Shown piece by piece: positions 338 through 42,893 of a stretch of 42,893 nucleotides of DNA (position 1 is the first letter of the stretch; every line of letters starts with the position of its first letter). The notes below the pieces were generated by a model. That model did no database searches. It saw nothing but the letters and a program-made list of their open reading frames with translations, and was not told where the DNA came from. Source of the stretch: a virus (taxonomy: Duplodnaviria; Caudoviricetes); the IMG/VR virus record IMGVR_UViG_3300044960_000121, positions 1 through 42,893 of that record; one strand, given 5' to 3'. A program made the translations under genes and the position numbers.

Positions 338-813
338 TAGTGATTGTAGCGGCAGGAAAGTCTTTATTATCAAGGCTTATAAGCCTTACAACAAAAAGCG
401 AATACACACACACAATAATACAACTTCCGCCTCCTTATGATATGCTTGTTTTGCATTCAACAATTTTTGGAGTTAGACTAAATTTTTTAAACAAAATAAA
501 AAGAAGATATAAAAAGTACATATCCTTCGAATGCCTTGATAGTCAAGTCAATCAAGCGACTTTATATATTGCTAAAAAATTAGATAATGAAAAATATGAT
601 TATCTGAGCTTGTTTTTAATTTTATTAAATAAAATTTTTAAAACAAAAAAATTAAATGAATATAGAAAAAATAAAAGTTATAATTGTGTTGAAGTGTTTT
701 TAGAGATAATGAAAAATTCAAATATTGAATTTGATTTTGAGATTGATAAAATTGAAACGCCACAAGATATAATTGACGAACTAAGATGTAGCAAGCTTTT
801 TAAGGAGATATAA
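334..813 (+). CDS. Permuted NlpC/P60 papain-like amidase (YiiX/YebB-like)
   Basis: His motif SEYTH near the N-terminus, then KYDY and YNCVE (His before Cys, the permuted order). Confidence 0.65.
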   Translation: MIVIVAAGKSLLSRLISLTTKSEYTHTIIQLPPPYDMLVLHSTIFGVRLNFLNKIKRRYKKYISFECLDSQVNQATLYIAKKLDNEKYDYLSLFLILLNKIFKTKKLNEYRKNKSYNCVEVFLEIMKNSNIEFDFEIDKIETPQDIIDELRCSKLFKEI

Positions 814-1347
814 ATGCCAACAGTCAGACAAGGCGATTTTATTCCATTGAGCTTAAAGCTTTATGATGAGCGTAGCGATAGATACGTGCGTGCATACCTC
901 ACTGATAGCAATGGCAATCCATTGCCACAATCACCTGTCAATCTTACACATGTAGGCTTTGGCTTGTATGAGAATAGAACCATTGCAATGCCTAATGTGG
1001 AGCATGTTACTGCGGTTTATGTTGTTTATTCTGATGCTGGCTATACAATTGAGGATGAAAATTATACTCATGGCGTTGATTTATTCGAACTTCACGTTCC
1101 TGATTTTGTAATTTTGACAAAATTAAATGAAATAAAAAATATATGCGAAAAGCTAGCGGCTCAAACATCAGTGGCTCAAGAGGTTAAAGGCATTGTGCAA
1201 TTAGCCGATGAAATTAGTGCATTATTATCTTCAAATAAAATTGAGGCTAAAGTGTTAGATGAAAAAATTGAGACACAAACAAGCGATAAAAATAATTTAT
1301 CAATAGATTTAAATGATAATAAATTTTTATTAGGAGAAATAAAATGA
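814..1347 (+). CDS. Hypothetical protein, probably virion-associated
   Basis: 177-aa ORF coupled to its neighbours; beta-rich N-terminal half. Confidence 0.5.
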   Translation: MPTVRQGDFIPLSLKLYDERSDRYVRAYLTDSNGNPLPQSPVNLTHVGFGLYENRTIAMPNVEHVTAVYVVYSDAGYTIEDENYTHGVDLFELHVPDFVILTKLNEIKNICEKLAAQTSVAQEVKGIVQLADEISALLSSNKIEAKVLDEKIETQTSDKNNLSIDLNDNKFLLGEIK

Positions 1348-1724
1348 GCATACCTTGCATTACAACAACACAAACTTTAACGATTGTAAGAGGTGAAGAA
1401 AAGGAGTTTTACATTAGATTAAAAACTGAAAGTGATGATTTTTATAATTTGTCAAGCATTGATCCCGCTAGCGGTGATAACATAAGCGTGATTTTTTTGA
1501 AAGCAGATAACACAACGCTGACAAAAGGTTTAATTAATGGCGTTTCGATTGTATCGGCTGAAGGCGGTAAGATAAAAGTGATATTGCAAGAGACAGAAAC
1601 CGCACTTTTAAAGGTAGGGGATTCTCAAGATATCGAGGTAGAAATTTTAGAAAATGGTGGAACATCAAAAAGAATAATACAGATCAAAGGCGTTTTAAAT
1701 GTTGTTAAACGCTTAGGTGAGTAG
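1344..1724 (+). CDS. BppU N-terminal-like structural protein
   Basis: LTIVRGE...YNLS...GKIKVIL.ETET..L...DIEV pattern typical of BppU_N-like domains. Confidence 0.45.
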   Translation: MSIPCITTTQTLTIVRGEEKEFYIRLKTESDDFYNLSSIDPASGDNISVIFLKADNTTLTKGLINGVSIVSAEGGKIKVILQETETALLKVGDSQDIEVEILENGGTSKRIIQIKGVLNVVKRLGE

Positions 1725-1758
1725 TCAAAAAATTAGACACTAGCCTATAAGTCTCTTT

Positions 1759-1824
1759 TAGCAAATTTTATGCCTATCAATTTATGCAAGAATTAAGCCA
1801 TGCATTTATGCAAAAAATAAGCCA
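1759..1824 (-). promoter_or_regulatory. Three tandem sigma54-like -24/-12 boxes
   Basis: Minus strand AGGCATAAAATTTGCT, TGGCTTAATTCTTGCA, TGGCTTATTTTTTGCA; each is GG-N10-GC, spaced 24-25 bp. Confidence 0.55.
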
Positions 1825-1855
1825 AAAAAAGCGGCTAGAACAATGTCCTAGCCGC
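1824..1855 (-). terminator. Rho-independent terminator of the leftward operon
   Basis: Minus strand GCGGCUAGGAC-AUU-GUUCUAGCCGC followed by U7. Confidence 0.85.
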
Positions 1856-1906
1856 CAAAAACAAACAACAGAAAGGAGGGCAGCCTAAAGATAATACTCT
1901 AGGCTA
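1824..1906 (-). ncRNA. Candidate 3'-UTR-derived anti-SD small RNA
   Basis: Hairpin AGCCUAGAG/CUUUAGGCU, then single-stranded CCCUCCUUUCUGUUGUUUGUUUUUG, then the terminator. Confidence 0.4.
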
Positions 1907-1908
1907 TC

Positions 1909-2070
1909 CTAGTGTATAGTGTAGCATACAATTTGATTTTTCTCATTCGTTTTTTGCTCATTTTCATCTAAATCATTGATTTCATTGTTATAATCTATTT
2001 CTAACTCTGTATCATCTAAAAGTATATCATCATCAGAATATTGCATTTTTTGATTGTTGTATACTAACAT
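1909..2070 (-). CDS. Small very acidic protein (53 aa), absent from the ORF track
   Basis: GGAGGT RBS 4 nt before ATG; MLVYNNQKMQYSDDDILLDDTELEIDYNNEINDLDENEQKTNEKNQIVCYTIH. Confidence 0.75.
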   Translation of the reverse strand: MLVYNNQKMQYSDDDILLDDTELEIDYNNEINDLDENEQKTNEKNQIVCYTIH

Positions 2071-2079
2071 CGTAACCTC

Positions 2080-2598
2080 CTAGTTTTCTTTATTTATTTC
2101 TTCAATTACTTCTTTAACAAAATTTTTTAATGATTTTACTGATTTAAAGCAGTATGAGCCAAACAGTACATGTTTGTACTTTAGTTCAGGGCGGACTGCT
2201 ACGTCCGCCGTACAATTAAAGCAATCCTCATAATGCATGTAAGTATATGTATCTACTATAAAATTTTTATCTATCGAAATGTAAGGTTTGCCGCTATCAT
2301 CAAGCAATTGATATTTTTCATCTTTTTTGCTTGTAAGTCGTAAGCCATTGATACGTATATGTTTTTTGTTAAAAAACCAACGCAGCGCTACCTCAAATAC
2401 AGGGGAGTAGAGAACACTAGCGTGTACTGCAGTAGTATCCTGCCATACTGCTGGGGCGTATTTTGGCCTACCCATCACTAGCAAGTGCTGCCAAGTGGGG
2501 TTTACACCTCCTAACCTTCTGTTTTTATTAAGAATTTCAGCTGTTATTTGAAGCTCAAGCTTTTTAATTAATTCTTTGATTTTATTGTTGTTTTTCAT
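2080..2598 (-). CDS. Hypothetical protein, paralog 3 of a tandem family
   Basis: GGAGG RBS; shares WF..K..I.I and YK..LF..F...S.K.L..F..EV motifs with the next two genes. Confidence 0.8.
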   Translation of the reverse strand: MKNNNKIKELIKKLELQITAEILNKNRRLGGVNPTWQHLLVMGRPKYAPAVWQDTTAVHASVLYSPVFEVALRWFFNKKHIRINGLRLTSKKDEKYQLLDDSGKPYISIDKNFIVDTYTYMHYEDCFNCTADVAVRPELKYKHVLFGSYCFKSVKSLKNFVKEVIEEINKEN

Positions 2599-2607
2599 TT
2601 TTGCCTC

Positions 2608-3222
2608 CTAGTAAATCCTGTCAATCACTTCATTAACAAAATTTTCCAAATCTTTCAAGGAGTTAAACCAAAACCTGCTAAATATGCAATATTTATAGGA
2701 TTTTTCTGGGGCTGAAGAGATGCGGGCATTAAAATCTAACCATTTATCGGCTACTTCAGAGGCGTAACTTGTAACTATGTGTTTTTGTTTGATTTCTACG
2801 TGTAAGTCGTCCCCATAAAACCATGTACATGTAGCTTCATCATCATTTAAATCAACGTTTTTTGAGCCTTCTAAATGTACATCATTGATTTCAATAGGTT
2901 TTTTATCACAAAACCATTCTTCTGCAACACGCATAAAGATGTCCTTTCTGGAATTAAAATATGAATAGCTATTAATTTTTAAACTATCAGGTTTAAAATA
3001 TGCACTTTCACAGATCTCAGAATAATATGAGCCGTTTAATGCCTTTTTTGCTTTTTGTTCTAATTCTTTGATTTTATTAATTTCTTCTTTTGTTAAAAAA
3101 TATCCGTACTTGCAATAAGTTACTGAATTGTCTGATGTTTTCATAGTGTTACCTCCTTTATTTGTTAAATTGTTGTTTTTGTTTAACTTTTTGCTTTCGT
3201 TGTTTTTTGTTAATTGTTTCAT
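2608..3222 (-). CDS. Hypothetical protein, paralog 2 (alternative in-frame start 3144)
   Basis: SD before both ATG 3222 (AAAGGAGA) and ATG 3144 (AAAGGAGG); shared family motifs. Confidence 0.8.
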   Translation of the reverse strand: MKQLTKNNESKKLNKNNNLTNKGGNTMKTSDNSVTYCKYGYFLTKEEINKIKELEQKAKKALNGSYYSEICESAYFKPDSLKINSYSYFNSRKDIFMRVAEEWFCDKKPIEINDVHLEGSKNVDLNDDEATCTWFYGDDLHVEIKQKHIVTSYASEVADKWLDFNARISSAPEKSYKYCIFSRFWFNSLKDLENFVNEVIDRIY

Positions 3223-3272
3223 GGTTTTATCTCCTTTCTTTTGTTAAGTTAATGTTTGTATTTGACTTTTTG

Positions 3273-3998
3273 TTACGCTGCTTTATTCATGTTGTTTTTG
3301 TCTTTTTGTTCTTCTTCGTCATCCTTAAAAAATTCAAGTTCTTTTTTAACTTCTTCTTCAAGTTTTTTTAGGTCTGATTTTTTTGTAAGATAAAATTTGC
3401 CAAAAAGGCAATATTTGTATGTTGCTTTTTTGTTGTTTGTTATATCCACCAGTCCATATATTTTTTCGGCTGGCAAATCCAAGGGTTCAAATGTGCGTAT
3501 TTCTGGCTCTTTTTCAGTTAGCATTTGTTCTTTTTGTATACTAACATAAAAATCTTTTTCAAAAGGCTCAAACGTAAATGGAATGTGCAAGCCTTTTTCT
3601 TCGTCCTCTTTTATGTATACATTTTTAATTTTTATATTGGTTTCATTGTTTGAAAACCAACGAAAAAGCACCTCCGCTATTGGGTCGTATGTTTTCATGT
3701 ACTTCCACTCGCCATTAACATATTGGTGATGAGGCTCATAGCCTATAGTCCTACCGTATCCGATGATGTAACCTTGTTTTAGTCTTTTCATCAATCGAAA
3801 AGAGCCTCGTATCCCTTCGTTGTACTCTGCAATCATTTTTCTTATTCTTTCGATTGTCTCTTGTACTACTTCGGCGGCTGACTTTTTACTGATTTTTTTG
3901 TTTGTTTTGTTTTGTTTCATTGTTTTTTTCCTCCTTTCTTTGTTTGTTGTTGTTTTGTTGTTTACTTTTTTTGTTTCGTTTGTTTTTGTTGTTTTCAT
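3273..3998 (-). CDS. Hypothetical protein, paralog 1 (start 3998 or 3920, not 4070)
   Basis: SD before ATG 3998 (AAAGGGGA) and 3920 (AAAGGAGG); ATG 4070 overlaps the promoter -10. Confidence 0.75.
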   Translation of the reverse strand: MKTTKTNETKKVNNKTTTNKERRKKTMKQNKTNKKISKKSAAEVVQETIERIRKMIAEYNEGIRGSFRLMKRLKQGYIIGYGRTIGYEPHHQYVNGEWKYMKTYDPIAEVLFRWFSNNETNIKIKNVYIKEDEEKGLHIPFTFEPFEKDFYVSIQKEQMLTEKEPEIRTFEPLDLPAEKIYGLVDITNNKKATYKYCLFGKFYLTKKSDLKKLEEEVKKELEFFKDDEEEQKDKNNMNKAA

Positions 3999-4068
3999 TT
4001 TTTGTCCCCTTTCTGTTTGTTTTTGTTTGGGGGATTTTTCTCTTTTCCCCTTAGTTAATCTATAATAC

Positions 4069-4095
4069 ATATCGGCATTATTTTAAAAAACTTTA
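4069..4095 (-). promoter_or_regulatory. Sigma28 (FliA/SigD) promoter
   Basis: Minus strand TAAAGTTT...GCCGATAT with exact TAAA-N15-GCCGATAT spacing. Confidence 0.8.
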
Positions 4096-4331: not shown

Positions 4332-4406
4332 AAAGCCTTGTAGCTCAAGGCTTTCAGAGGTATAACAAAAACTTATGTTGTTAAAAGCCTTGTTGCTCAA
4401 GGTTTT
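4332..4406. repeat. Two intergenic copies of the genome-wide palindrome AAAGCCTTG-N5-CAAGGCTTT
   Basis: 4332-4354 perfect; 4384-4406 one mismatch. Confidence 0.9.
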
Positions 4407-4633: not shown

Positions 4634-4649
4634 CGTTTCATGTGAAACT
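4634..4649. promoter_or_regulatory. parS-like palindrome
   Basis: cGTTTCATGTGAAACt versus chromosomal parS consensus TGTTTCACGTGAAACA. Confidence 0.6.
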
Positions 4650-4870: not shown

Positions 4871-5118
4871 GTCCCCCTCCTTATGTGTGTGTTTGCGTAG
4901 CGCATTGCCGAAATAAAATTTTCAAATAAAACTAGATTGTCTCCTTTTTTGACAGGCTTCCAGTCGCTTGCGGGATAAGGCTTTCCAAAGATAAAAAATT
5001 TTGGCGTTAATTTTTGATACTCAATTGTCCAAAATTTTCTATTATCAATCTCAATAATTTTATATCTCACATCTACTTTATTTTTTATAAAAATATTGTC
5101 TTTAAAAAACTTAAGCAT
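4867..5118 (-). CDS. Hypothetical protein
   Basis: AAGGAG RBS; overlaps the next gene by 4 nt. Confidence 0.65.
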   Translation of the reverse strand: MLKFFKDNIFIKNKVDVRYKIIEIDNRKFWTIEYQKLTPKFFIFGKPYPASDWKPVKKGDNLVLFENFISAMRYANTHIRRGT

Positions 5119-5145
5119 ATCATACTCCTTTAAAAGCCTTGTGTG

Positions 5146-6084: not shown

Positions 6085-6985
6085 TTGTTTCTCCTTTCTG
6101 TGTTTGAGTTAATGATTTTACTTTTTGCTCAATCTTTTTTAGCATTTCTAAATTTGTTTTATTTTCATCAATTGATTTTTTGATTTTTTCTTTTAATTCT
6201 TCATCTTCAATTTTTAAAATCAATTCAGATAAGTTTTTTATTATATCCTGTATCTCATGTGAGCCTTGCGTAGCAAGGCGTACAAGCTCATCATATTTTT
6301 TAAAGTCTAATGATATCTCAAAAGGCAAACAAAATCTATTTTTAGCATCTATGCCTATGCGTGCCTCCGTATATATTACTCTTTCACCTGTCAGTGTTGG
6401 GTTTTCCTTATCTCTTATCAATTTGTAATTTGCAAATAAAACACTGTCAACAAATTCTTTAAATAATGCCGCCGATTTTTTATGTAGTTTAAATGTATAA
6501 CGATTATACTCAATCTGATTTTGGGGATCGCTAAATGTTGTAATGTCTGCATGGCATATGATTGCAATGTTATATTTTTTTCTAAGATCAGTTAATTTAT
6601 CTTTTAATAAAATAAAGCTAGCTAATGCCTCAGTGTAGCCTTTTCCATAGCCGCCTGCGGCTAATTCAATGTTTTTAACTTTATATTTTTCACAAATTTG
6701 TTTATGAAGCATGTACTCCACCCAGTCGAGACTATCAATTACAACGCTTTTATATTTTGTTTCGTTTTTTAATAGCCAGTCACAAAATTCTAAAACCTCT
6801 TCAAAGCCTTGTGGCTCAAAGCGTTCAACATCTATAACTGCAGTACCATCTTCAGCGGCGATAAAAATAGGGGCGGGCATAGAGGCACAAAATGTTGTTT
6901 TGCCAATGCCTGATACCCCATATATCAAAAACAAATGGTTTTTAGTTGTTATTCCTCTTTTTATTTGTTCATTAAAATTTTTCAT
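6065..6985 (-). CDS. AAA_24 / Sak4-like single-strand annealing ATPase
   Basis: YGVSGIGKTT Walker A, VVIDSLD Walker B, GYGKGY, IICH, AKNR. Confidence 0.85.
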   Translation of the reverse strand: MKNFNEQIKRGITTKNHLFLIYGVSGIGKTTFCASMPAPIFIAAEDGTAVIDVERFEPQGFEEVLEFCDWLLKNETKYKSVVIDSLDWVEYMLHKQICEKYKVKNIELAAGGYGKGYTEALASFILLKDKLTDLRKKYNIAIICHADITTFSDPQNQIEYNRYTFKLHKKSAALFKEFVDSVLFANYKLIRDKENPTLTGERVIYTEARIGIDAKNRFCLPFEISLDFKKYDELVRLATQGSHEIQDIIKNLSELILKIEDEELKEKIKKSIDENKTNLEMLKKIEQKVKSLTQTQKGETNGEGKN

Positions 6986-7194
6986 TCTTTTAACTCCTCT
7001 ATTAATCTTAATACATTATTAACTTGTTGGTTGGGTATTTTCTTTTGTCTTAACCATGCTCTTATTGGGTATGATGAGCGATAGCCTAATTTGTATGCTA
7101 TGAAAACATCGCCATACTTGTTTTTTAATAGATTTAAATTTTTTATTATCTCATTGATATTGATATTTTTATCATAATAAGCCTTGTTGTACAT
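6982..7194 (-). CDS. Small HTH (Cro-like) DNA-binding protein
   Basis: IAYKLGYRSSYPIRAW...KIP HTH-like pattern; GGAGG before ATG 7194. Confidence 0.55.
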   Translation of the reverse strand: MYNKAYYDKNININEIIKNLNLLKNKYGDVFIAYKLGYRSSYPIRAWLRQKKIPNQQVNNVLRLIEELKE

Positions 7195-7218
7195 GTTTGC
7201 CTCCTCTTTGTTTAGCAT

Positions 7219-7247: not shown

Positions 7248-7319
7248 CACAAAAAAAATTATTTGAAAAATAAAATTAACTATTATATAAAAAATCTACA
7301 ATTCAATTCGGAGAAAAAA

Positions 7320-8183
7320 ATGAAAATCTTAAACGTTGAACAAAACACGCCTGAGTGGCATGAGCTACGTAGGACACACATAGGGGCTTCTGACGCACCA
7401 ATCATAATGGGAGTATCTCCATACATGACGCCTTTGGAGTTATGGAGATATAAGCTTGAAAACCTTGAGCCTCAAGGCTTTCAAGACAACGAGATTTTAA
7501 AAAAAGGGCATGAATGCGAAATTATTGCAAGAGAGATTTTCAATAACACATACAACACTAATCTTAAACCTTGTGTGTGTCAGTCTGATAGTAGGCAGTA
7601 CTGCATTGCATCTTTAGATGGATTAGATATTGAAAAAAATTTAATTGTAGAATTTAAATATGTTGGAAAACAAGATTTTGATAATGGCAAAATATTGCAA
7701 CATCATGAGCCGCAATTGTTACATCAATGCTATGTTTGTGAGACTGATAGAGTTTTATATGTGCTTTATAATGATTTTTACAACACTATTAAAGTGATTG
7801 AGTATTTGCGTGATGAAAAAAAATTAAAAACACTTTTAAAAAAAGAAGAAGAGTTTTATAAGTGCATGACTGACAAAGTGCCGCCTGAACCCACTGACAA
7901 GGATTTTTATGTGGTAGATGATAGTGAGCTATCAACATTAATAGATGAATATAAAAAATTAAATGAAGAGTTAAAAAATTTAGAACAAAAACAAAAAGAG
8001 CTAAAAGATAAAATTTTAAATCATGAGATTATAAAATCTCATCAAAGAGTTTTAATTAATGATACAAAGATTTTTGAAATAGTACGCCGTGGAAGCATTG
8101 ATACGCAACGCTTACAAGAGGAGTTAAAAATTGATTTAGAAAAGTATAGAAAAGAAAACATTAAATATTGGATCATCAAATAA
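7320..8183 (+). CDS. YqaJ / lambda-exonuclease family nuclease
   Basis: QNTPEW...R..IGASD, G...E, ASLDG, VEFK, Q...Q motifs; GGAG before ATG 7320. Confidence 0.9.
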   Translation: MKILNVEQNTPEWHELRRTHIGASDAPIIMGVSPYMTPLELWRYKLENLEPQGFQDNEILKKGHECEIIAREIFNNTYNTNLKPCVCQSDSRQYCIASLDGLDIEKNLIVEFKYVGKQDFDNGKILQHHEPQLLHQCYVCETDRVLYVLYNDFYNTIKVIEYLRDEKKLKTLLKKEEEFYKCMTDKVPPEPTDKDFYVVDDSELSTLIDEYKKLNEELKNLEQKQKELKDKILNHEIIKSHQRVLINDTKIFEIVRRGSIDTQRLQEELKIDLEKYRKENIKYWIIK

Positions 8184-11381: not shown

Positions 11382-12425
11382 TCAAGGCTTTTGCGGGTTT
11401 TTGTGTTTTATAAAAATTCTTTTATATAATTCTTTTCCATTTATGAAAACAGGCTTGCCATACATTACTCCGTTGTAATATTCTTTAAATGTACTTGTAC
11501 CTAGTATCTCAAATTGATAACTATTATATTTATCTAAAAAAGAAACAGGTAACCCCATTATTCCATCATAATCATTAGGTATTGCATCAGTATAAGGCAC
11601 TTCAATAGCATCATAGTTATCATATTTTTTATATGAATTATTGTTGTTTTGGATTTTTTTGTTATGTTTTAAATTTTCATTCATTGATTTTAGTTTTAGA
11701 GGTTTTGGTTGTTTTCCATGTTGCAAATTTGTAAACCATCGTATTCGGCTTACTCTTATATACTTTTTACCGCTCTTATCTACTCTATACACCGCCGCAT
11801 TGAGCGGGTACTCACTAGGCACTAAAAACTCCCTATCGCCGCTCCTTATGCTATGTCCTAACCATACAATATTATTTTTTATTAAATAAAAAACATCTTT
11901 GTAAGTGATTGCATTCATATTACCAAGTACTAAAAACTTTTTATTATGCTCAATCAATAATTTAAAAAAATATCTAAACAGTGAATAAGGCGGATTGGTT
12001 ACTATAATATCTGATTGTTTTAATATTTCAATGCATTCAGGACTACGAAAATCGCCATTGCCGTTTAGTGTTGTTAATTCGTTTTTTTTGTTTTTCAAAA
12101 TTTGATTAATAACGTCAATTAGGCTTGTATCAAGGCTTTCAGGCACTTCATTGACTTCATTTATTATTAGTTTTTTACCATTTCCGTTTTTGCTATAACA
12201 AGTGGCTATGAGAGTTTTTAATTTAAATTTATTAAAATTAAAAATAAAATATTTTATAAAATTGCTTTTTGTAGGCTCATCACAATTGCAATATATGGTT
12301 TTGTTTCTGAATACATTGATATCATGTTCATAATAAACATTAACTTCTTTTTCTATATCTTCGTACAAAGTATAGAACTCATCACATTTCGCTTTTCTTG
12401 CATTGTTTAGATTTTTGTTTTTCAT
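11382..12425 (-). CDS. EcoRI-family adenine DNA methyltransferase, copy 2
   Basis: DEFYT, IYCNCD, GDFRS.EC, IVTNPPYS, YDNYDAIEV, FLDKY. Confidence 0.88.
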   Translation of the reverse strand: MKNKNLNNARKAKCDEFYTLYEDIEKEVNVYYEHDINVFRNKTIYCNCDEPTKSNFIKYFIFNFNKFKLKTLIATCYSKNGNGKKLIINEVNEVPESLDTSLIDVINQILKNKKNELTTLNGNGDFRSPECIEILKQSDIIVTNPPYSLFRYFFKLLIEHNKKFLVLGNMNAITYKDVFYLIKNNIVWLGHSIRSGDREFLVPSEYPLNAAVYRVDKSGKKYIRVSRIRWFTNLQHGKQPKPLKLKSMNENLKHNKKIQNNNNSYKKYDNYDAIEVPYTDAIPNDYDGIMGLPVSFLDKYNSYQFEILGTSTFKEYYNGVMYGKPVFINGKELYKRIFIKHKNPQKP

Positions 12426-13462
12426 TTTTGTTTATTTTTGTGTTTTATAAAAATTCTGTTGAAAACCTCTTTTCCATTTATATAAGGTGATCTTCCATAA
12501 ATTTTATTTGGATCTTGGTAAATGCCACGGGTTGAGCCTAAAATCTCAAACTGATCAGGATTATATTTATCTAAAAAACTAATCGGGACACCCATTACTC
12601 CCTCATAATCGCTAGGTATTGCATCGGTATAAGGCACTTCAATAGCATCGTAATTATCGTATTTTTTGTAGGCATTAGGGTTTTTTTGGATTTTTTTATT
12701 GTGTTTTAGATTATACTGCATTGTTTTTAATCTTAATGGCTTGGGTTGTTTTCCGTGTTCTAAATTTGTAAACCATCTGATTGCGTCTATTTTTATGTAC
12801 TTGTTGCCATTATCATCTACAAAATAATTTTTTGAATATAGATTATATTCATCAGAAACTAAAAAAATCATATTGCCGCCTCTAGTGCTATGACCTAGCC
12901 ACATTTTATTTTGTTTTATCTGCGAAAAAACACCCGTATACGTTACTGCGTTTAGGTTTCCTACTATCAAAAATTTTTTTTCATATAGAAAAAGTAACTT
13001 AAAAAATTCATGCAATAAAGAGAAAGGCGGATTAGTTATTATAATGTCGGATTGTTTTAACAGCTCAACACATTCATCACTTCGAAAATCTCCGTTGCCG
13101 TTTAATGTTGTTAGCTCATTGTTTTTGTTTCTTACTAATCTATTAACAATACCAACAAGGCTTGCATCAAGGCTTTCAAAGATATCGTTAGTTTCATTGA
13201 CTACTAGTTTTAACCCTTTGCTATCTTTTTTGTAACAAGTTGCAATCAATCTTTTTAATCCAAATTTTTTGAAGTTTAAAACAAAGTACTTTGCAAAGTT
13301 GCTTTTGTATGGATTATCGCAATTGCAATATATTACTTTGTCTCTGAATACATCTTTATCATACTCATAATATATGTTTATCTCTTTTTCGATATAATGG
13401 TATAAAGTATAAAACTCTACGTTTTTCTCTTTTTGTTGCCTGTTTAGCCTTTGACCCCTCAT
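12422..13462 (-). CDS. EcoRI-family adenine DNA methyltransferase, copy 1
   Basis: EFYT, IYCNCDNP, GDFRS.EC, ITNPPFS, MGVPISFLDKYNPDQFEILG. Confidence 0.88.
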   Translation of the reverse strand: MRGQRLNRQQKEKNVEFYTLYHYIEKEINIYYEYDKDVFRDKVIYCNCDNPYKSNFAKYFVLNFKKFGLKRLIATCYKKDSKGLKLVVNETNDIFESLDASLVGIVNRLVRNKNNELTTLNGNGDFRSDECVELLKQSDIIITNPPFSLLHEFFKLLFLYEKKFLIVGNLNAVTYTGVFSQIKQNKMWLGHSTRGGNMIFLVSDEYNLYSKNYFVDDNGNKYIKIDAIRWFTNLEHGKQPKPLRLKTMQYNLKHNKKIQKNPNAYKKYDNYDAIEVPYTDAIPSDYEGVMGVPISFLDKYNPDQFEILGSTRGIYQDPNKIYGRSPYINGKEVFNRIFIKHKNKQK

Positions 13463-14354: not shown

Positions 14355-14627
14355 ATGAGACTTATACCTGACAAAAAGTTGTTGTTAAAATTGGATTATA
14401 AAATTGATACTGAAATGCGAAAGCTTGTCTATTGGCTTATCTGCAATGTTCACCCAGGTATTAGCATGACGCAATTCATCGAAGAGGCAATAACAAAGTA
14501 TATGAATGAAGTCAAACAAAAATATAATGTTCCTCCTTTAGATGATGTTGAAATTTATCACTTTAATATGAAGCGTCCAAAATCAATATTGCCTAAAACC
14601 GTTGATAGTCAAGGCATTCAAAGATGA
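14355..14627 (+). CDS. Hypothetical, possible ribbon-helix-helix DNA-binding protein
   Basis: Strand-helix-helix pattern ending SMTQFIEEAITKY. Confidence 0.45.
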   Translation: MRLIPDKKLLLKLDYKIDTEMRKLVYWLICNVHPGISMTQFIEEAITKYMNEVKQKYNVPPLDDVEIYHFNMKRPKSILPKTVDSQGIQR

Positions 14628-15079: not shown

Positions 15080-16442
15080 TAATTACCTTTGGATGTTATA
15101 CCCACACATATTTGCCTACGTTGCATCAAAAGCTAAATGGATACCATACAAATTTTTGCGTTACATTTCTGATGTGATAAGCAATGCAATCTTTGACGGC
15201 GCAGGACGAATAATTATTAATGTGCCTCCTAGGCACGGCAAAAGCATGTTTGTCTCATTTTGGCTTCCTTGTTGGTTTTTAAATTTGTATCCTCACAAAA
15301 ACGTTTTGCTTGTCTCATATGAGGCAGACTTTGCCGCATCTTTTGGGCGAAGAGTTAGAAATGAATTGATGAGCAATCCAAAATTAAGAGTTCCGATAAA
15401 TGTAGACACAACAGCCGCAAACCGTTGGTACACAAGCGAAGGCGGCGGCATGGTGTCAATGGGCATAGGAGGGGCTATAACAGGTAGAGGGGCAGATTTA
15501 ATAATTGTAGATGACCCAATCAAAAATTGGATTGAGGCAACATCTCAAACATATCAAGAGCGAACATTTGATTGGTTTCGCTCAGTGCTGCTAACACGTT
15601 GTGAGCCACATACTACTGTGATTTTACTCATGACCCGTTGGCATGAGAATGACTTAACAGGCAAGCTATTAAGATATCATGCCGACGAATGGCAACATAT
15701 ATCTTTGCCTGCTATTTGCAATTCTGATAATGACCCAATTGGAAGAAAAATTGGCGAAGCTTTATGTCCACAGCGTTTTGATTTACAAAAATTAGAAAAA
15801 CTAAAAAAATCTTTAGGAACTCACATTTTTAACGCAATGTATCAACAAGAACCTACAAATCCAAAAGCAGTTATAAAAAGGCATCATTTTAGATTTTACG
15901 AAAGCCTTGATACTCAAGCTTTTGAGGAGATTTTTCAATCATGGGATTTAGCTTTAACAGATAATGAAAAATCTTCATTCGTTGTTGGGCAAGTTTGGGG
16001 TGTTAAAAACGGAGATTATTATCTCATTGACCAAATTAGGGCACAATTGGATTTTTCTGATACAATAAAAGCATTCATTTCTTTGTCAGAACAATACCCA
16101 AAAGCCTACAAAAAAATAGTTGAAAACAAAGCATCGGGACTTCCTCTTATTAGCATACTACGCAGAAGAGTATACGGCATAATCGCACACAATCCGCAAG
16201 GCTCAAAGCTTATGCGGCTTATGAGTGTACTACATCTTTTTGAGGCGGGTAGAGTATACCTTCCCGCTCATGCTCAATGGGTTGAAGACTACATCTATGA
16301 GCTCACAACATTCCCCGATTGTGAGCATGACGATCAAGTGGATGCAACAACGCAAGCGTTATATTTGTTTCAAAGCTCAAAAAGTTATGATAAAATTACA
16401 CCATTAGAGATTTTAAAAAACAAGTATGATTTAGAGGTTTAA
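15051..16442 (+). CDS. terL: Terminase large subunit
   Basis: PPRHGKS, GRGADLIIVDDP, MTRWH..DL, SWDLA, VENKASG, HDDQVDA. Confidence 0.95.
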   Translation: MMKQTLKTIDNYLWMLYPHIFAYVASKAKWIPYKFLRYISDVISNAIFDGAGRIIINVPPRHGKSMFVSFWLPCWFLNLYPHKNVLLVSYEADFAASFGRRVRNELMSNPKLRVPINVDTTAANRWYTSEGGGMVSMGIGGAITGRGADLIIVDDPIKNWIEATSQTYQERTFDWFRSVLLTRCEPHTTVILLMTRWHENDLTGKLLRYHADEWQHISLPAICNSDNDPIGRKIGEALCPQRFDLQKLEKLKKSLGTHIFNAMYQQEPTNPKAVIKRHHFRFYESLDTQAFEEIFQSWDLALTDNEKSSFVVGQVWGVKNGDYYLIDQIRAQLDFSDTIKAFISLSEQYPKAYKKIVENKASGLPLISILRRRVYGIIAHNPQGSKLMRLMSVLHLFEAGRVYLPAHAQWVEDYIYELTTFPDCEHDDQVDATTQALYLFQSSKSYDKITPLEILKNKYDLEV

Positions 16443-23015: not shown

Positions 23016-23963
23016 ATGGCTAACCCAACAAAAAACGAAGTTCATGTTAATAAACCATTAACCAACATATCAGTAGCATACATGCAAGATTTAAACGCTT
23101 TTGTTGCCGATCAAGTTTTTCCAAAAGTGGCGGTAGCAAAGCAATCCGATAGATATATCGTTTACGATAAGGCAGATTTTTATAGGGATGAGATGAAACT
23201 GAGAGCTCCCGCCTCTGAGAGCGCAGGGGCAGGTTTTCGAATTGATAACACGCCTACATACTATTGTGCAGTCTACGCATTGCACAAAGATATTGACGAT
23301 CAGTTGAGGGCAAACGTTGATGAGCCTATCAATCTAGATGAAGACACAACAAAATTTTTAACTCAAAAAATGATGTTAAAAAAAGATAAAATCTTTGTTG
23401 AAAACTATTTTAAAACAGGCGTATGGGGCACTGACTACACCCCCTCAACATTGTGGAGTGCGGCAAACTCAACACCTGTAAAAGATATAGACGCACAAAA
23501 AGATAGCGTTTATAAAAAAACGGGCTACATGCCTAACGTTTTAGTTGTAACCTCTGACGTTCATACTGTACTTAAAAATCATCCCGATGTATTAGACAGG
23601 GTTAAGTACACACAACAGGCAACAATATCAGAACAGTTATTAGCATCTTTATTTGGCGTTCAAAAATATTTAGTTTTAAGAACCATTGAAAACAAAGCCG
23701 CAGAAGGGGCTAGTGCAGACTTTGATTTTCTAGCTAGCAAAAAAGCTTTATTAGTTTATGCCGCAAGTGCTCCGTCTCTTATGACTCCATCGGCGGGCTA
23801 TTCATTTGTTTGGCAAGGACTTACTGGCTCAATTGACGGCGTAAGAGTTAAAAATTTCCGATTAGAACATTTAGCCGCTGATAGAATTGAGATTGAAGCC
23901 GCTTTTGATTTAAAAGTTGTTGCGGCTGACTTAGGCGTTTTCTTTAACGGAGTGATTGCCTAA
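23016..23963 (+). CDS. Major capsid protein
   Basis: LTNISVAY.Q..FVAD.VFP.V N-terminus, G..PN.LV, G..F ending; strong RBS; position. Confidence 0.85.
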   Translation: MANPTKNEVHVNKPLTNISVAYMQDLNAFVADQVFPKVAVAKQSDRYIVYDKADFYRDEMKLRAPASESAGAGFRIDNTPTYYCAVYALHKDIDDQLRANVDEPINLDEDTTKFLTQKMMLKKDKIFVENYFKTGVWGTDYTPSTLWSAANSTPVKDIDAQKDSVYKKTGYMPNVLVVTSDVHTVLKNHPDVLDRVKYTQQATISEQLLASLFGVQKYLVLRTIENKAAEGASADFDFLASKKALLVYAASAPSLMTPSAGYSFVWQGLTGSIDGVRVKNFRLEHLAADRIEIEAAFDLKVVAADLGVFFNGVIA

Positions 23964-24286
23964 TGTACATTAGCACAAGATACTTCACCACAGCACTAAG
24001 ATCCTATATGCCTAATGAGCCGATACCTGAGGCAGAGACTTGGGATTGGCTCATTAGGGCAAAGTTATTAGATTTAGGTTGGATTAAAAAAATTGATGAG
24101 CCTGTAAACCTTGCGGCTCATAGAGTTGCAAAGGAGAAAGCTCAAGAGACAAAAAAAGAACAAAAAGAAGATGAGCCGATAAGCGAAAGAACATGTAAAC
24201 AATGTGGCAAAGTTTTAGCAACAAAATATTCTTTAAAACGCCACATGGTAAGCGTACACAATCATGGCTTGGACGTACTCACATAG
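23963..24286 (+). CDS. Hypothetical protein with a C-terminal C2H2 zinc finger
   Basis: CKQCGKVLATKYSLKRHMVSVH (C-x2-C-x12-H-x4-H). Confidence 0.75.
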   Translation: MYISTRYFTTALRSYMPNEPIPEAETWDWLIRAKLLDLGWIKKIDEPVNLAAHRVAKEKAQETKKEQKEDEPISERTCKQCGKVLATKYSLKRHMVSVHNHGLDVLT

Positions 24287-24656
24287 TCCTGATACATCAA
24301 CACTAGATTGGGTTAGGCTTGTCATTGGAGACACTGACTCAAATGACAAATTATTATCTGATGAAGAAATCAACGCAATAATAAATAAATCAATAAATGT
24401 ATGGCATGCGGCTTATTACGCCGCATTACTTATCGCAAGCAAATTTGCAAGGCTTGCGGATGAAAGCGTGGGAGATGTTTCTGTTCGTTATTCGCAAAAA
24501 TCAGAACAATACTATAGATTAGCGGACAAGCTAAAACAAGAAGCAAACACGAAAAGCTATGTGTCTGCATACGCCGCAGGCATATCCTTGTCTGATAAGG
24601 CTTTTAATGAGTCCGATAATGATTTAGTAAAATCAAAATTTAAAATCGATGTTTAA
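24264..24656 (+). CDS. Head-tail adaptor
   Basis: VRL.IGDTD...LLSDEEI, ESVGDVSV.Y. Confidence 0.7.
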   Translation: MAWTYSHSPDTSTLDWVRLVIGDTDSNDKLLSDEEINAIINKSINVWHAAYYAALLIASKFARLADESVGDVSVRYSQKSEQYYRLADKLKQEANTKSYVSAYAAGISLSDKAFNESDNDLVKSKFKIDV

Positions 24657-25122
24657 ATTCATTAGCTCAACAAAAGTTTTAAAATCACAACGGGAGACTC
24701 TTTTTAAAAGACTAAAAGAGATTGAAAAAAAATATGTAACGGTTGGCATACACGAAAATAAAAAGTATGAAGATAATACTCCCGTTGCAATGATTGCGGC
24801 AATTCATGAGTTTGGTTCTGATAATGTGCCTGAGCGATCATTCATTCGCTCATCAATCAATGAAAACAAAAGCACAATAAAAAAATATATTAGACTTTAT
24901 TTGCAACAAGTTTTAAGATTATCAATGAGTGTTGACACTGCACTAGCAAGCATTGGTAATGTAGTGGCGGCAAAACACAAAGAAAAAATTGTTAAAGGTG
25001 AGTTTACGCCATTGAGCAAAGTATATTATGAGCTCAAAATGAAAAAACTTGGAAAGGCTTATATACTAAGGTATACAGACACGTTACTTCAATCTATTGA
25101 CTATGAGATTAAAACAGAATGA
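24649..25122 (+). CDS. Neck / tail-completion protein
   Basis: VTVGI, IA.IHEFG..NVPERSFIR. Confidence 0.7.
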   Translation: MFKFISSTKVLKSQRETLFKRLKEIEKKYVTVGIHENKKYEDNTPVAMIAAIHEFGSDNVPERSFIRSSINENKSTIKKYIRLYLQQVLRLSMSVDTALASIGNVVAAKHKEKIVKGEFTPLSKVYYELKMKKLGKAYILRYTDTLLQSIDYEIKTE

Positions 25123-25460
25123 GCATGTACAACATTAGACTGCCAATCATGATAAAAAAGGGAAAACGCATAGTTGTTGTGCGATATTCGTTTCGCTCTA
25201 CAGCAAAAGGCAGAATGCAAAAAGTAAAAGCATATGAGACCGCAACAATAGCGGAAGTGCAGCCTGCAACATCAGATGATTTATTAAAATTAGCCGAAGG
25301 CGATAGAGATAAAGATGTAATCGCAATTTGGACAACATTTAAACTTTGTCTTAATGATGAGATATGCTATAATAATAATATTTATAAGATTATCAAAGTG
25401 CAAAATTGGAATGATTTTTTTAAGGGAATAGGTATTAAGCAAGATGCAATTAATAACTGA
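25119..25460 (+). CDS. Head closure protein
   Basis: VQPA...DL..L.EGDR, D.I.Y....YKI..V..W. Confidence 0.65.
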   Translation: MSMYNIRLPIMIKKGKRIVVVRYSFRSTAKGRMQKVKAYETATIAEVQPATSDDLLKLAEGDRDKDVIAIWTTFKLCLNDEICYNNNIYKIIKVQNWNDFFKGIGIKQDAINN

Positions 25461-25998
25461 TTTTAATAAAATTGAAGATGAAATTGTAAGCATAATTGAA
25501 GACGCAAGCGGCAAGCGTGTTATATGGGAGTTGTCTGATACCCTTGCACCGCAAGGCTCTTACATATCTTTAGCGTATGTTAATCCTATGAATTTTGTAA
25601 CTCAGTTTTTTGACGTGAAAGCGATAGATGATGACACAAGCGAATTCTCTACGATTGCAGAATTGGTTTTGTCTGTTAAGATAATTCACAAAGATGTTTA
25701 CGATGCAAAATTAATGAGAGAAGCCGCAAGCCTTGCGGCTCAATTAAATGAGCCTGATACTCAAAAAAGATTAAGACCTTTAGGCGTGGCATTGATTAAT
25801 ATATCAAATGTAAGAGATATCTCTTTGAACATCAATGAAGAATATTATTTGCGTTTTCAATTTGATATGACTTTTTATTTTAATTTTAAATTTTTAGTTA
25901 AAACATCTACAATTAAAAATGTACAAATATCGCAAGGACATTTTTATGATTTTAATAATTCATTAATTCATGAAGTTAATAAATTAATTTCAACGTAA
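25444..25998 (+). CDS. Tail terminator protein
   Basis: Position before the sheath gene; size; R.QFD..F. Confidence 0.55.
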   Translation: MQLITDFNKIEDEIVSIIEDASGKRVIWELSDTLAPQGSYISLAYVNPMNFVTQFFDVKAIDDDTSEFSTIAELVLSVKIIHKDVYDAKLMREAASLAAQLNEPDTQKRLRPLGVALINISNVRDISLNINEEYYLRFQFDMTFYFNFKFLVKTSTIKNVQISQGHFYDFNNSLIHEVNKLIST

Positions 25999-26009
25999 GG
26001 AGATTAAAA

Positions 26010-27035
26010 ATGACACTATCGCAAATTGTTAACATTCAAATCTCAAGGCAAACAACAGCACCAACACAAAAAGGTTTTGGCACTGCTTTATTTTTAGCCT
26101 CTTCAGTGCCTACAGGTTACACAACAAGATTTAAAGCTTATTCAAGCATTGAAGAAATGCAAACAGATGGGTGGACTACTGAGGCTGCTTTTGTTGCGGC
26201 AACAAAATATTTCGGGCAAGAGTTAAAACCTGAAAAAATTTATATCGGACTTGTTGATAGCGGGGAAACCTATACTCAAGCTCTTCAAGCAGTTCAAGCG
26301 GTTAATAATGATTGGTATGTTTTGCTAGCAGAAACACATGTTAAAGCCGATATTCTAGCATTAGCGGCGGCAATTGAGCCACAAGATAAAATGTATATTT
26401 GTTCATCTTCAGATAGCGATATTATAACCTCCGTAAACACTGATGTAGCAAGCTCTTTACATTCTGCTAACTATGACAGAACAGCAATAATTTACTCTTC
26501 TAATGCGGCTCAATATCCTGAGGCTGCAATAGTTGGCTTGCAATTGCCTAAAGCGGCAGGCTCATCAACATGGAAATTTAAAACATTAAAGGGGATCACT
26601 GTAGACAATCTTACAACAACACAAATCAGTAACGCAAAAAACAAAATGTGCAATGTGTACACAACAATAGCAGGAGTTAACATATTGCATGAGGGTGTGG
26701 TATCATCGGGCGAATTTATCGATGTTATTCAGGGTATTGATTTTATAAAATCTAGATTGCAAGAGAATATTTATTTTTCGTTAATCAATTCTGAAAAAAT
26801 TCCATACACTAATGCAGGAATTTCTGTTGTTGTTAACATTATAAAACAAGTGTTGACTGATGCTATTGATAGAGGCATACTTGCCGCAAGTCCTACCCCT
26901 GAAGTATCCGCTCCATTAGTAGATGATGTTAGTGCAATTGATAAAGCTAATAGATTACTACCTAATGTAAAATTTTCCGCAACATTAGCGGGTGCGGTGC
27001 ATAAAATTCAAATTAACGGCATTGTAACAATATAA
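26010..27035 (+). CDS. Contractile tail sheath (DUF3383-like)
   Basis: IVNIQIS, TWKFKTL.G, GEFID.I.G.D, KIPYT.AG, LAGAVH...I.G. Confidence 0.88.
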   Translation: MTLSQIVNIQISRQTTAPTQKGFGTALFLASSVPTGYTTRFKAYSSIEEMQTDGWTTEAAFVAATKYFGQELKPEKIYIGLVDSGETYTQALQAVQAVNNDWYVLLAETHVKADILALAAAIEPQDKMYICSSSDSDIITSVNTDVASSLHSANYDRTAIIYSSNAAQYPEAAIVGLQLPKAAGSSTWKFKTLKGITVDNLTTTQISNAKNKMCNVYTTIAGVNILHEGVVSSGEFIDVIQGIDFIKSRLQENIYFSLINSEKIPYTNAGISVVVNIIKQVLTDAIDRGILAASPTPEVSAPLVDDVSAIDKANRLLPNVKFSATLAGAVHKIQINGIVTI

Positions 27036-27055
27036 AAAAATAAGGAGATATAACA

Positions 27056-27478
27056 ATGGCAGTAAAAACCTATGACCCAAAACAGGTAACAGTAATAGTA
27101 GGCACAAGACCTATATCAGGCTTTGCAGATGGGACTTTTATAACTGTTGCTAGAAATTCAGACATGTGGAGTTTGGTAGTTGGGGCTGATGGTGAGGCAA
27201 CAAGGGCAAAATCAAATGATAAGTCAGGGCGTATCACAATCACATTGACACAATCGGCAGAAAGCAATCAATACCTATCTGAGCTAGCTTTAGCTGATGA
27301 ATTAAGTAATGGCGGGCTTGTTCCTATTCTGATAAGAGATGCGTCAGGCAAAACAATACATGCATGTGCTAGTGCTTGGATTGTCAAGCGTCCCGAAAGT
27401 GCCTTTGCAAAAGAAGCGGGTACACGTGAGTGGGTTTTTGAGACTGACACATTAGAAATGTTTGAAGGGGGTAATTAA
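27056..27478 (+). CDS. Tail tube protein (DUF3277-like)
   Basis: TYDPK.V, ISGFADG, VGADG, G.ITITL.Q...SN..L, REW.F. Confidence 0.88.
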   Translation: MAVKTYDPKQVTVIVGTRPISGFADGTFITVARNSDMWSLVVGADGEATRAKSNDKSGRITITLTQSAESNQYLSELALADELSNGGLVPILIRDASGKTIHACASAWIVKRPESAFAKEAGTREWVFETDTLEMFEGGN

Positions 27479-39894: not shown

Positions 39895-39897
39895 AAA

Positions 39898-41062: not shown

Positions 41063-41082
41063 AAAACAAGGAGGTAAAAAAC

Positions 41083-41637
41083 ATGTCAGATTTAAGAGAG
41101 CTTTTTCCAATTTTAGAGGATAGCCTTACACAGGAAGGTAAAGGCTGGACATCGGTGTCAGAAAATTTTACAGCCTCACAAGCCAATGCTGGTGCGGTTT
41201 TGGCGGTAAAAGATGAAAGCGGTAAATTGCAGTATATACCAATGGTAGATGGTAAGATCCCAGTTACTTTTGAGAGCGCTGACATTGTTTATAAGTATGC
41301 TAGAGGCGGACATGCAGGCGATAAAAACAATTATCAAGTTTTAGCTACGATCAATTTAATAAATAACAAAGCCTACACAGGACTAGAATGGGTAGTGTCA
41401 TGCTATAGAGACACACATTTTGAGATTGTAAAAATTGATGATAGTACAGGAACACCTGTAGAGACAGTGCTAGCAGATATTTTAACATCCGCAGGATGCG
41501 TAACTCATGCAGGCGGTTTAAAAAATTTGAAATTTGTTGCGGGGGCAACAGGCACATGCATACTTGTTGTTAGAGCAAAAAATTTCGGTGTTGCCTCACA
41601 AATGAGAGCTACTATATCAATCATTGAAAATCAATAG
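41083..41637 (+). CDS. Hypothetical protein, probably structural
   Basis: AAGGAGGT RBS; 184 aa, beta-rich. Confidence 0.65.
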   Translation: MSDLRELFPILEDSLTQEGKGWTSVSENFTASQANAGAVLAVKDESGKLQYIPMVDGKIPVTFESADIVYKYARGGHAGDKNNYQVLATINLINNKAYTGLEWVVSCYRDTHFEIVKIDDSTGTPVETVLADILTSAGCVTHAGGLKNLKFVAGATGTCILVVRAKNFGVASQMRATISIIENQ

Positions 41638-41652
41638 TGTGCTTGTTATAAT
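41624..41652 (+). promoter_or_regulatory. Strong sigma70-like promoter
   Basis: TTGAAA-N17-TATAAT with extended TG. Confidence 0.65.
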
Positions 41653-41658
41653 TAATAT

Positions 41659-41738
41659 TGCTTGTGAGCTTTTGGTTTTTGTTTCCCCCTTTTGTGTAAT
41701 ACGCTCCGCTCAAGATGAGCGGGGCGTCCATATTTTTT
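41659..41738 (+). ncRNA. Candidate anti-SD small RNA (about 80 nt)
   Basis: Lies between the promoter and a GC-rich hairpin with U tract; U/C-rich core UUUUUGUUUCCCCCUUUUGUG. Confidence 0.4.
41701..41738 (+). terminator. Rho-independent terminator-like hairpin
   Basis: ACGCTCCGCTCA-AGA-TGAGCGGGGCGT, then ccata and T7. Confidence 0.65.
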
Positions 41739-41750
41739 TGTGAGATTTTT

Positions 41751-42344
41751 ATGAGATATTTTTTTATCATTTTTTTGCTTTTAAGTTTTAATTTAATGGC
41801 TCAGGATGTTGAGCCATTACTGAATGTTTTTGTTACTAACCCCAAAAGCCTTGTCTATCAAGGCTTTCAAAAGAAGATAATTTTAGATTATCTAAAAGAT
41901 GCTAGTGGCTCAATTGATATGAATGTTGACGGCAGAAACCCAAACAAAAGCTTTAAATTTAATTGTAACCAAAATGATGATATATATATAACATCATTAA
42001 GATTGTATGCTAAAAGGGATAGCATTACTTTGCTAAACTTTTTGGGCGTTGCAAAATTAACAAATGGCTTAAATGTTAACATTAAAACAAATGCAAATTT
42101 AATAAACTTTGCAACATTAAAAGAGACAAAAGATATAATGCTTTTTTTATCTAACCCATTATCAGATTTTAATTTGATTGATGGGGCTGATGATATTGTA
42201 ATATCAAATTACAATTTTTTTAATCCAATAAAAATTCGAAAATGCGAAATATCAAACAATGATTACATTGAATTTGTAATTAGAGATGATTTAAGGGGGA
42301 TAAAAGAATTTTTTGCTTTTGTAATTGGTTTTACAATTGATTAG
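41751..42344 (+). CDS. Hypothetical protein with a signal peptide
   Basis: MRYFFIIFLLLSFNLMA-Q; the track start 41715 lies inside the hairpin. Confidence 0.65.
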   Translation: MRYFFIIFLLLSFNLMAQDVEPLLNVFVTNPKSLVYQGFQKKIILDYLKDASGSIDMNVDGRNPNKSFKFNCNQNDDIYITSLRLYAKRDSITLLNFLGVAKLTNGLNVNIKTNANLINFATLKETKDIMLFLSNPLSDFNLIDGADDIVISNYNFFNPIKIRKCEISNNDYIEFVIRDDLRGIKEFFAFVIGFTID

Positions 42345-42352
42345 GTGAGAGT

Positions 42353-42893
42353 ATGGTAATACAACAATATCAAACAACAAATGAGGGACTGCCATATATC
42401 GGTGTTAATCGTGTCCCTTTAGGCTTTGCGTATTATGTTACTTCGGTAGCCGATAATATTGCAAGCGGCACATACGGCAATGGAGTATCATTAGAGTTAA
42501 CACAACAAAATAATGTTGTAGATTTTCAATTATTGCAACATTGGTATATTGTTGGCGCAAGCGGTACGTTTTATAATTGCACAAAAGACGACAAATTAGA
42601 CGCTTATCTCATAGCTCCGAAAACCCTTGCTACTCAAGGCGTTTACGGCAATTATGTAAAGTATAATGTTGCACAAGGCATAAACATGTATGTGCCTGTA
42701 CAACAGGGATCAGGCGATTGGCATTTAGATTTAAATGAAAAACTACCAAACACAAACATCTTAAAATGTGTGCCTGTCCCCGCAAAAAATGATAATGGAT
42801 TTTTTGATTATGATTTTGAAAGTAATACTCTACAAGTTAATTTAAATAAAAATGGAAAATTTAATCTTTTTGATTGTGATTTAATGCTTTTTC
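42353..42893 (+). CDS. 5' part of the 239-aa hypothetical protein continuing to 337
   Basis: AGGTGA RBS, ATG 42353, MVIQQYQTTNEGLPYIG...; open to the window end. Confidence 0.8.
   Translation, partial: MVIQQYQTTNEGLPYIGVNRVPLGFAYYVTSVADNIASGTYGNGVSLELTQQNNVVDFQLLQHWYIVGASGTFYNCTKDDKLDAYLIAPKTLATQGVYGNYVKYNVAQGINMYVPVQQGSGDWHLDLNEKLPNTNILKCVPVPAKNDNGFFDYDFESNTLQVNLNKNGKFNLFDCDLMLF
42736..42893. repeat. Terminal direct repeat, right copy
   Basis: Matches 1-158 with one mismatch. Confidence 0.95.

Follow-up and report, generated by a model that had tools for sequence, protein, structure and literature searches.

A symmetric gapped palindrome dispersed through the genes of a phage genome, and its likeness to IHF-type sites

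The window analyzed here is the whole of IMG/VR virus record IMGVR_UViG_3300044960_000121 (42,893 nucleotides; Duplodnaviria, Caudoviricetes), and it carries ∼57 copies of a symmetric palindrome built on TTG-N5-CAA. The motif is real and far above chance, and its density is unmatched among the sequences that we tested. Judged from sequence, it is IHF-like by geometry and context, yet outside the E. coli type, and a host protein of the IHF/HU (DNABII) family is the probable, candidate reader. The window is probably a complete circular phage genome: 158 terminal bases are repeated with one difference, which leaves a unit of 42,735 bases. Its gene set includes terminase, portal, capsid, sheath, baseplate, SLT, Sak4, RecE, primase/helicase, and two EcoRI-like methyltransferases.

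A fixed 18-letter consensus, with ≤4 mismatches allowed, finds 33 sites in the phage. A first-pass annotation made from the letters alone had proposed comparison with codon-preserving shuffles, and the excess is borne out: at the same cut, 200 synonymous-codon shuffles gave a mean of 4.7 sites (maximum, 11) and 200 codon-order shuffles gave a mean of 0.33 (maximum, 2). Because the synonymous shuffles exceed the codon-order shuffles, the encoded peptides themselves are biased toward the motif. The spacer comparison proposed at the same time gave a peak at N5, with 26 occurrences of CTTG-Nx-CAAG at x = 5 and 0 to 4 at each other x in the range 0 to 13. When a self-trained symmetric matrix was applied with a cut of ≥14 bits, 57 sites were called, a count that is partly circular; synonymous shuffles at this cut gave 9.9 (maximum, 18). 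The 57 sites comprise 37 of the 40 listed in the first-pass annotation plus 20 new ones. All 40 of the listed positions carry a copy in register, and the copies at 4332 and 41845 are indeed perfect, but the earlier total of 35 to 40 was too low. As had been described, the motif is spread genome-wide, lies mostly inside genes (51 of 57 sites wholly so), and imprints the encoded proteins. Information spans ∼33 bases, with a preferred outward flank of (C/T)AA(G/A). The spacer had been said usually to end in T, and it does so in 36 of the 57 sites; A also comes first in 28 of the 57, and these two tendencies make the spacer largely symmetric.

With ≤3 mismatches of 16 allowed, the window has 32 sites versus 0 to 3 in each of 47 other virus records. 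A scan of related phages had also been proposed, and here dense carriers were not found: in 97 loci from phages whose head or baseplate genes are related, there were 3 matches in 1.27 Mb. There was no other motif-rich virus among the 47 records, these 97 loci, 119 metagenome loci, and 97 loci with imperfect variants, and searching with an extended 27-letter pattern gave no match. With ≤2 mismatches allowed, the density in the window is 0.44 sites per kb versus a maximum of 0.06 per kb among 50 bacterial genomes, none of them known as the host; the largest bacterial count was 328 copies in 5.5 Mb.

The bacterial densities bear on whether the motif is a self mark or uptake-type signal of the host lineage, dense in the host genome and read by some other host protein, to which the phage has drifted to match. 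We consider this clearly unlikely. Some bacteria do hold tens to hundreds of copies (≤328 in 5.5 Mb), restriction-type words are strongly avoided in the phage, and a paralog cassette that is apparently a recent gain is motif-free. However, at the same cut the densest of the 50 genomes falls well below the window, and the bacterial copies that we inspected are the centers of longer palindromic repeats. Such repeat families were seen in Pseudanabaena (≤328 copies; loci L112, L113, L124, and L144) and in a Clostridiales metagenome-assembled genome (77 copies; L106, L127, and L153), with the motif at the center of a longer palindrome. Across the whole window, CCGG and CGCG are absent and GGCC, GCGC, GATC, and GA(A/T)TC are depleted, from which it would follow that host defense shapes the phage DNA. 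The motif-free cassette (1909-4070), for which the first-pass annotation had correctly reported no good copy, consists of orphan genes with no Pfam or PHROG match at E 0.001; one of them, 2080-2598, had no usable Atlas match.

The copies behave as double-stranded protein sites. Among deviations affecting both arms, 10 of 27 are still complementary versus 13.5 of 31.3 in permutations, a long T tail occurs at none of the 57 sites, and the median fold energy is −5 kcal/mol. The absence of both arm covariation and T tails argues for a double-stranded protein site rather than a hairpin. That the motif represents RNA hairpins, terminators, intrastrand triplex repeats, or mobile-element remnants is thus extremely unlikely, even though perfect copies elsewhere resemble bidirectional terminators or the centers of REP-like repeats. 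An intrinsic terminator or other RNA hairpin in the phage was rejected because there is neither compensatory pairing nor a U tract, and a triplex repeat of the BoxC/PIT kind (as outlined in part of PMC4666352) because no conserved third purine/pyrimidine block was found within 25 bases of a site. An inserted palindromic mobile element was rejected on protein alignments: at the 7 of 51 intragenic sites with enough homologs, only substitutions or insertions of 1 to 2 residues were seen, never an 11-residue or other element-sized insert. Sites with such alignments look as if they were built by substitution, and overall the sites appear to be products of selected point changes and not of mobile-element insertion. 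The earlier description of a protein site, as opposed to an RNA hairpin or transposon, therefore stands.

At several places the sites come at a cost to protein sequence. In the terminase large subunit gene, one residue of site 15901 fills a column that is gapped in 30 of 30 aligned homologs (of 120 listed). The closest terminase relative, a fragment (P0002) with 98% identity (the next has 52%), has an L-to-V change at this site that, compared at the protein level, is compatible with a tolerated motif variant. At RecE site 8092 the residues Q, L, and Q are present in 3%, 7%, and 3% of 59 aligned homologs (of 150); a Tyr-to-Thr change at the same site is not demanded by the motif. Both methyltransferase genes carry N3-spaced variants, as had been noted near 12120 and 13157, and there ESLD(A/T)S replaces an acidic loop conserved in homologs, 0 of 48 of which have SLD at that position. 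The N3 block is one of five blocks with 18 of 19 bases identical between genes that are 70% identical overall, which is modest evidence. These tandem EcoRI-like adenine methyltransferases (11382-13462) are 64% identical and shorter than most listed homologs, and their matches come from mixed taxa. There was no preference of sites for variable protein regions (mean percentile, 0.45; P = 0.38; 7 sites).

All three reading frames are used by the intragenic sites (32, 12, and 7 of 51). Position within genes is uniform (Kolmogorov-Smirnov P = 0.79) and sites are not tied to the starts of genes (14 of 57 genes; expectation, 12.2), which together indicate that these are not ordinary operators. The mean numbers of mismatches are 1.9 in the left arm and 2.0 in the right, a symmetric profile lacking the asymmetry of stoperators. 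Because the site is symmetric, directional roles are unlikely and the reader is probably a homodimer.

These results also bear on a phage-encoded dimeric repressor, either the ribbon-helix-helix (RHH)-like protein at 14355-14627 or the helical protein at 6982-7218, which would set transcription roadblocks or form a segregation coat in a plasmid-like prophage. We rate this as unlikely. Dispersed mycobacteriophage stoperators provide a precedent (as described in part of PMC12266134), and the most informative arm positions are centered one helical turn apart, as for helix-turn-helix dimers. The protein at 14355-14627 resembles centromere-binding RHH clusters (a lead only), and a parS-type site and the lack of an integrase match suggest a plasmid-like state. 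However, no site lies upstream of 14355-14627 or in the 6982-7218/7242 divergent region, and the phage readers named in the first-pass annotation, the HTH-like and RHH-like proteins among them, are so far not supported; the uniform placement and the absence of a link to gene starts count against a phage repressor as well. Furthermore, the capsid, sheath, and tube genes have zero sites (P ∼0.025, post hoc), and the same core, spacer, and flanks are found in unrelated elements. Even with a phage-encoded reader, it is unusual for one virus to have its conserved protein loops overwritten dozens of times by a DNA signal.

Exact matches to the 18 letters are found in 78 viral stretches and, by estimate, in 3,600 stretches from the genome collection, versus ∼9 expected at equal base frequencies. 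Our exact-match sample consisted of the 78 viral stretches and 124 fetched genome stretches (202 loci). Other viruses, and bacteria belonging to many phyla, have 1 to 3 copies, and 9 of the 124 genome matches are proteobacterial by title. A tRNA or tmRNA gene lies within 300 bases at 34 of the 202 loci, always with the motif on its 3′ side and in 33 cases within 51 bases; several of these loci are near-duplicates from Streptococcus. When 48 of the 90 open reading frames (ORFs) in 20 viral regions were searched, 8 of 10 loci picked for tRNA-like flanks had an adjacent tyrosine integrase, versus 0 of the 10 others. Three of the integrase ORFs have 365 residues and look alike; neighbors in the other 10 regions included two serine recombinases, one transposase, and two proteins of the primase/helicase type. 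Across viruses the imperfect variant peaks at N5 (35 of 97, or 26 of 76 distinct; 5 to 16 at other spacers), and 88 distinct imperfect copies from metagenomes have the same outward preference as the phage (flank score, −0.20 versus −1.42 ± 0.24). We regard the shared N5 peak and flank preference as the strongest evidence that one and the same signal underlies the phage motif and the widespread motif. A place can now be given to the motif, which the first-pass annotation could not name. It corresponds to an IHF-like element that many phyla carry at integration sites, and this match points to a host reader.

Three further patterns were seen in other viruses. On large viral contigs (L002, L004, L015, L027, and L038) the exact motif stands ∼20 bases from a TTGACA promoter-like hexamer. 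Another phage (L596 [G097], at about 8800-10400; L591) carries a local array of CAAGG words with a 9-base period, echoing the CAAG-N5-CAAG formed by motif arm plus flank. Viral locus L560 has a different overrepresented gapped palindrome, of the TCATAC-N-GTATGA type, in 12 to 13 copies in 19.6 kb.

In the attP region of phage lambda, a TTG-N5-CAA core at 27759, which we take to be the H′ site, starts 15 bases past the annotated recombination core. Its left arm is one mismatch from the phage motif, and among core-only matches in 601 bases it ranks first; its right half fits the IHF consensus WATCAAnnnnTTR (given in part of PMC10380432). A relaxed form, TCAA-N4-TT, is present in 28 of the 57 sites. 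IHF introduces kinks 9 bp apart within a 35-bp site (from part of PMC8421141), at TT and AA steps (from part of 10.1101/2025.09.08.674847); the phage core has TT and AA steps 9 bases apart and information over ∼33 bases, the kink spacing and footprint geometry of IHF. Aligned at register 0 with the 33-mer IHF consensus (part of PMC10380432), the sites agree on average at 9.98 of the 18 fixed letters (random expectation, 6.93 ± 0.25), the outer TTG included, and 10 of the 18 letters are enriched position by position. In other elements the motif does occur beside tyrosine-integrase attachment sites, often just 3′ of a tRNA end, where lambda attP too has its IHF site; in this phage, 0 of 57 ORFs matched an integrase.

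Several observations weigh against identifying the motif with an IHF-like site or the sites with a folding pattern. The canonical E. coli consensus WATCAAnnnnTTR is present in register at 0 of 57 sites, 8 of the 33-mer's 18 fixed letters lack enrichment, and on the full matrix the lambda site scores 5.4 bits, second in its region. Only 1 of 132 ORFs flanking 80 genome matches is an integrase. Perfect palindromes elsewhere have spacers of 5, 6, 7, 8, and 9 in 37, 36, 20, 17, and 8 of 119 cases, with no unique peak, and they have T-rich tails, unlike the phage copies; many of them may therefore be terminators. Site footprints take up 4.4% of the phage genome. Finally, over the whole genome the sites are randomly spaced (P = 0.41) and show no helical phasing, and the more even spacing found from 14.3 kb onward, in the late region (coefficient of variation, 0.67; P = 0.003), comes from a test region picked post hoc.

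Greater density (1 site per 646 bases from the terminase region onward versus 1 per 1,100 elsewhere) and more even spacing there would also be expected of a ratchet, in which regularly spaced high-affinity sites help to pull DNA from the capsid or aid packaging. The density difference also tracks gene age and base composition, however, and we hold this explanation to be very unlikely.

We propose that a host DNABII dimer binds and kinks each symmetric 33-base TTG-N5-CAA site, and that kinks about every 650 to 750 bases would fold the circular phage DNA into small loops. The purpose would be architectural, namely, compaction and protection of the intracellular genome; this is the weakest step. 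In simulations IHF pins plectonemes and compacts DNA (from part of PMC9519438), in line with such folding. The sites of the late region, spaced more evenly than random, also speak for it. The two parts taken jointly, a host bending protein as reader and a benefit to the phage from folding its genome, have somewhat less than an even chance of being correct. A six-frame search of the phage for PF00216 (HU/IHF) gave no match. Reports of IHF are confined to proteobacteria, nitrospirae, and nitrospinae, and binding by HU is described as sequence independent (PMC5683647 and PMC10325909), while proteobacteria supply only 9 of the 124 genome matches; the reader would then be either an HU-type homodimer with an undescribed symmetric preference or another protein.

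Alternatively, the phage may act as a sponge, its replicating genome titrating the host bending protein away from oriC, from the leaders of CRISPR arrays, or from nucleoid-sensing defenses. The numbers would allow it, as 57 sites in an assumed 100 genomes make 5,700, versus 5,000 to 10,000 IHF molecules in E. coli (from part of PMC10380432). Moreover, IHF and HU promote spacer integration (part of PMC13769266), and nucleoid proteins freed from DNA can trigger abortive infection (part of 10.64898/2026.04.06.716658). A compact intergenic array would suffice for titration, however, and dispersal in genes at a cost to proteins better fits a positional role; in the 202 exact-match loci we saw no CRISPR-like array (flanks of 300 to 1,500 bases). 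A sponge is, in our estimate, clearly improbable.

Binding by HU-family proteins is regarded as free of sequence preference, and a phage normally has a few IHF sites. Returning to the proposed host DNABII reader, we offer a broader idea, possible but on the doubtful side: bacteria outside the IHF-bearing phyla would mark attachment sites, origins, and repeats with an undescribed symmetric code for a bending protein of the HU type, and the phage would have rewritten ∼57 places in its genes, overriding conserved residues, into a genome-wide chromatin pattern or decoy. If true, this would supply a candidate consensus for a host bending factor in IHF-less phyla and a natural test case of whether a phage benefits when nucleoid proteins are positioned over the full length of its genome. 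IHF-like motifs are present in ∼56.5% of CRISPR leaders (Santiago-Frangos et al. 2021, as reported in part of PMC13769266), and the motif may already be in print as a logo in that paper or its supplements. The literature that we searched, with most subscription journals outside its coverage, gave no account of the motif or of a phage carrying such a motif genome-wide.

The coordinates of the sites and of related features are given in Table 1. Sequencing runs that contain the phage are labeled hot-spring or microbial-mat metagenome, a possible source, and no RNA datasets are listed among them. Rfam and tRNA searches of the phage gave no matches, and promoter and terminator scans gave chance levels only. 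No close relatives for a comparison of synonymous sites were found: the nearest for RecE has 41% identity, a scan of viral contigs with RecE found no close relative, and a search with the tail-fibre-region protein (36376-38436) returned only itself. The best phage match of RecE is in Bdellovibrio phage phi1422 (33%), in which the Sak4/RecE layout is similar, 7 of 57 proteins match, and the motif is absent. About 230 bases from the intergenic doublet is a single palindrome (4634-4649) that we take to be a chromosomal-type parS; the phage has no ParA, ParB, or integrase match and may be borrowing the host partition system. The A/T-rich spacer of 900 bases at 13462-14354, between the replication and packaging genes, contains repeated GGTAAA/TTACC words, is motif-free, and is a candidate origin. 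The 1,045-residue head-module protein at 18635-21772 combines the domains of a methyltransferase and of an ATP-dependent DNA ligase with an XkdF-type protease. None of the phages in the annotated collection has a match over 80% of this protein.

Table 1. Motif copies and related features of the window
Feature	Coordinates	Strand	Remarks
Dispersed symmetric motif, 23-base core, ∼33-base footprint	357..42643	no strand	57 copies
Core starts, part 1	357, 530, 4332, 4384, 4784, 4962, 5133, 6260, 6803, 7459, 8092, 9174		
Core starts, part 2	11369, 14596, 15419, 15901, 17564, 17874, 18261, 18669, 18867, 19340, 19830, 20027		
Core starts, part 3	20661, 21273, 22045, 22385, 22720, 24105, 24448, 24582, 25538, 27673, 27871, 28430		
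Core starts, part 4	28618, 29185, 30190, 30658, 31435, 32071, 32465, 32692, 33601, 34219, 35036		
Core starts, part 5	35481, 35918, 36425, 37385, 37551, 38463, 40188, 40623, 41845, 42621		
Weaker copies	11041, 25727, 28121		
Intergenic doublet, near-perfect sites 52 bases apart (∼five helical turns)	4332..4406	no strand	A/T-tract-rich spacer
Site in RecE-like gene	8092..8114	+	Rare residues versus homologs
Site in terminase large subunit gene	15901..15923	+	One residue in column gapped in homologs
N3-spaced variant in EcoRI-like methyltransferase gene 11382-12425	12114..12139	no strand	Peptide ESLDTS
N3-spaced variant, same position in paralog 12422-13462	13151..13176	no strand	Peptide ESLDAS
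Region with major capsid (23016-23963), sheath (26010-27035), and putative tube (27056-27478) genes	23016..27478	+	Those three genes site-free
Candidate reader, 90 residues, ribbon-helix-helix/ParG-like look-alikes (lead only)	14355..14627	+	One site in 3′ end, none upstream
Candidate reader, 78 residues, all-helical (low-confidence model, pLDDT 63)	6982..7218	−	Divergent promoter region site-free

The stoperators of mycobacteriophages are short and asymmetric; their orientation follows transcription, and the phage repressor binds them. Like them, the motif described here consists of operator-like elements dispersed through a phage genome (compare part of PMC12266134). In contrast to them, it is symmetric and common to unrelated elements, and at neither candidate gene was a repressor with a site at its own promoter found. 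The DNA uptake sequences of Neisseria and Pasteurellaceae and the cyanobacterial HIP1 are short ungapped words in cellular genomes. They too occur about once per kb, lie inside genes, and bias the encoded peptides, whereas the phage motif is a long, degenerate, gapped palindrome in a phage. E. coli REP/BIME repeats, some of which bear IHF sites, and the palindromic repeats of Pseudanabaena and Clostridia likewise present many copies of a palindrome centered on the motif, but they are intergenic, 60 to 100 bases long, and share their flanks, whereas the phage copies share only ∼33 bases. With the IHF site the phage motif has in common the CA-N4-TTT right half, TT and AA steps 9 apart, a footprint of ∼33 to 35 bases, the outer TTG in register, and, in other elements, a place beside integration cores. 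It differs in being fully symmetric, in a strong preference for GGC/GCC in the N4, and in lacking both a purine after TT and an A-tract. The two also differ in deployment: IHF sites are few and stand at att, cos, or an origin, whereas the phage motif is used ∼57 times, inside genes.

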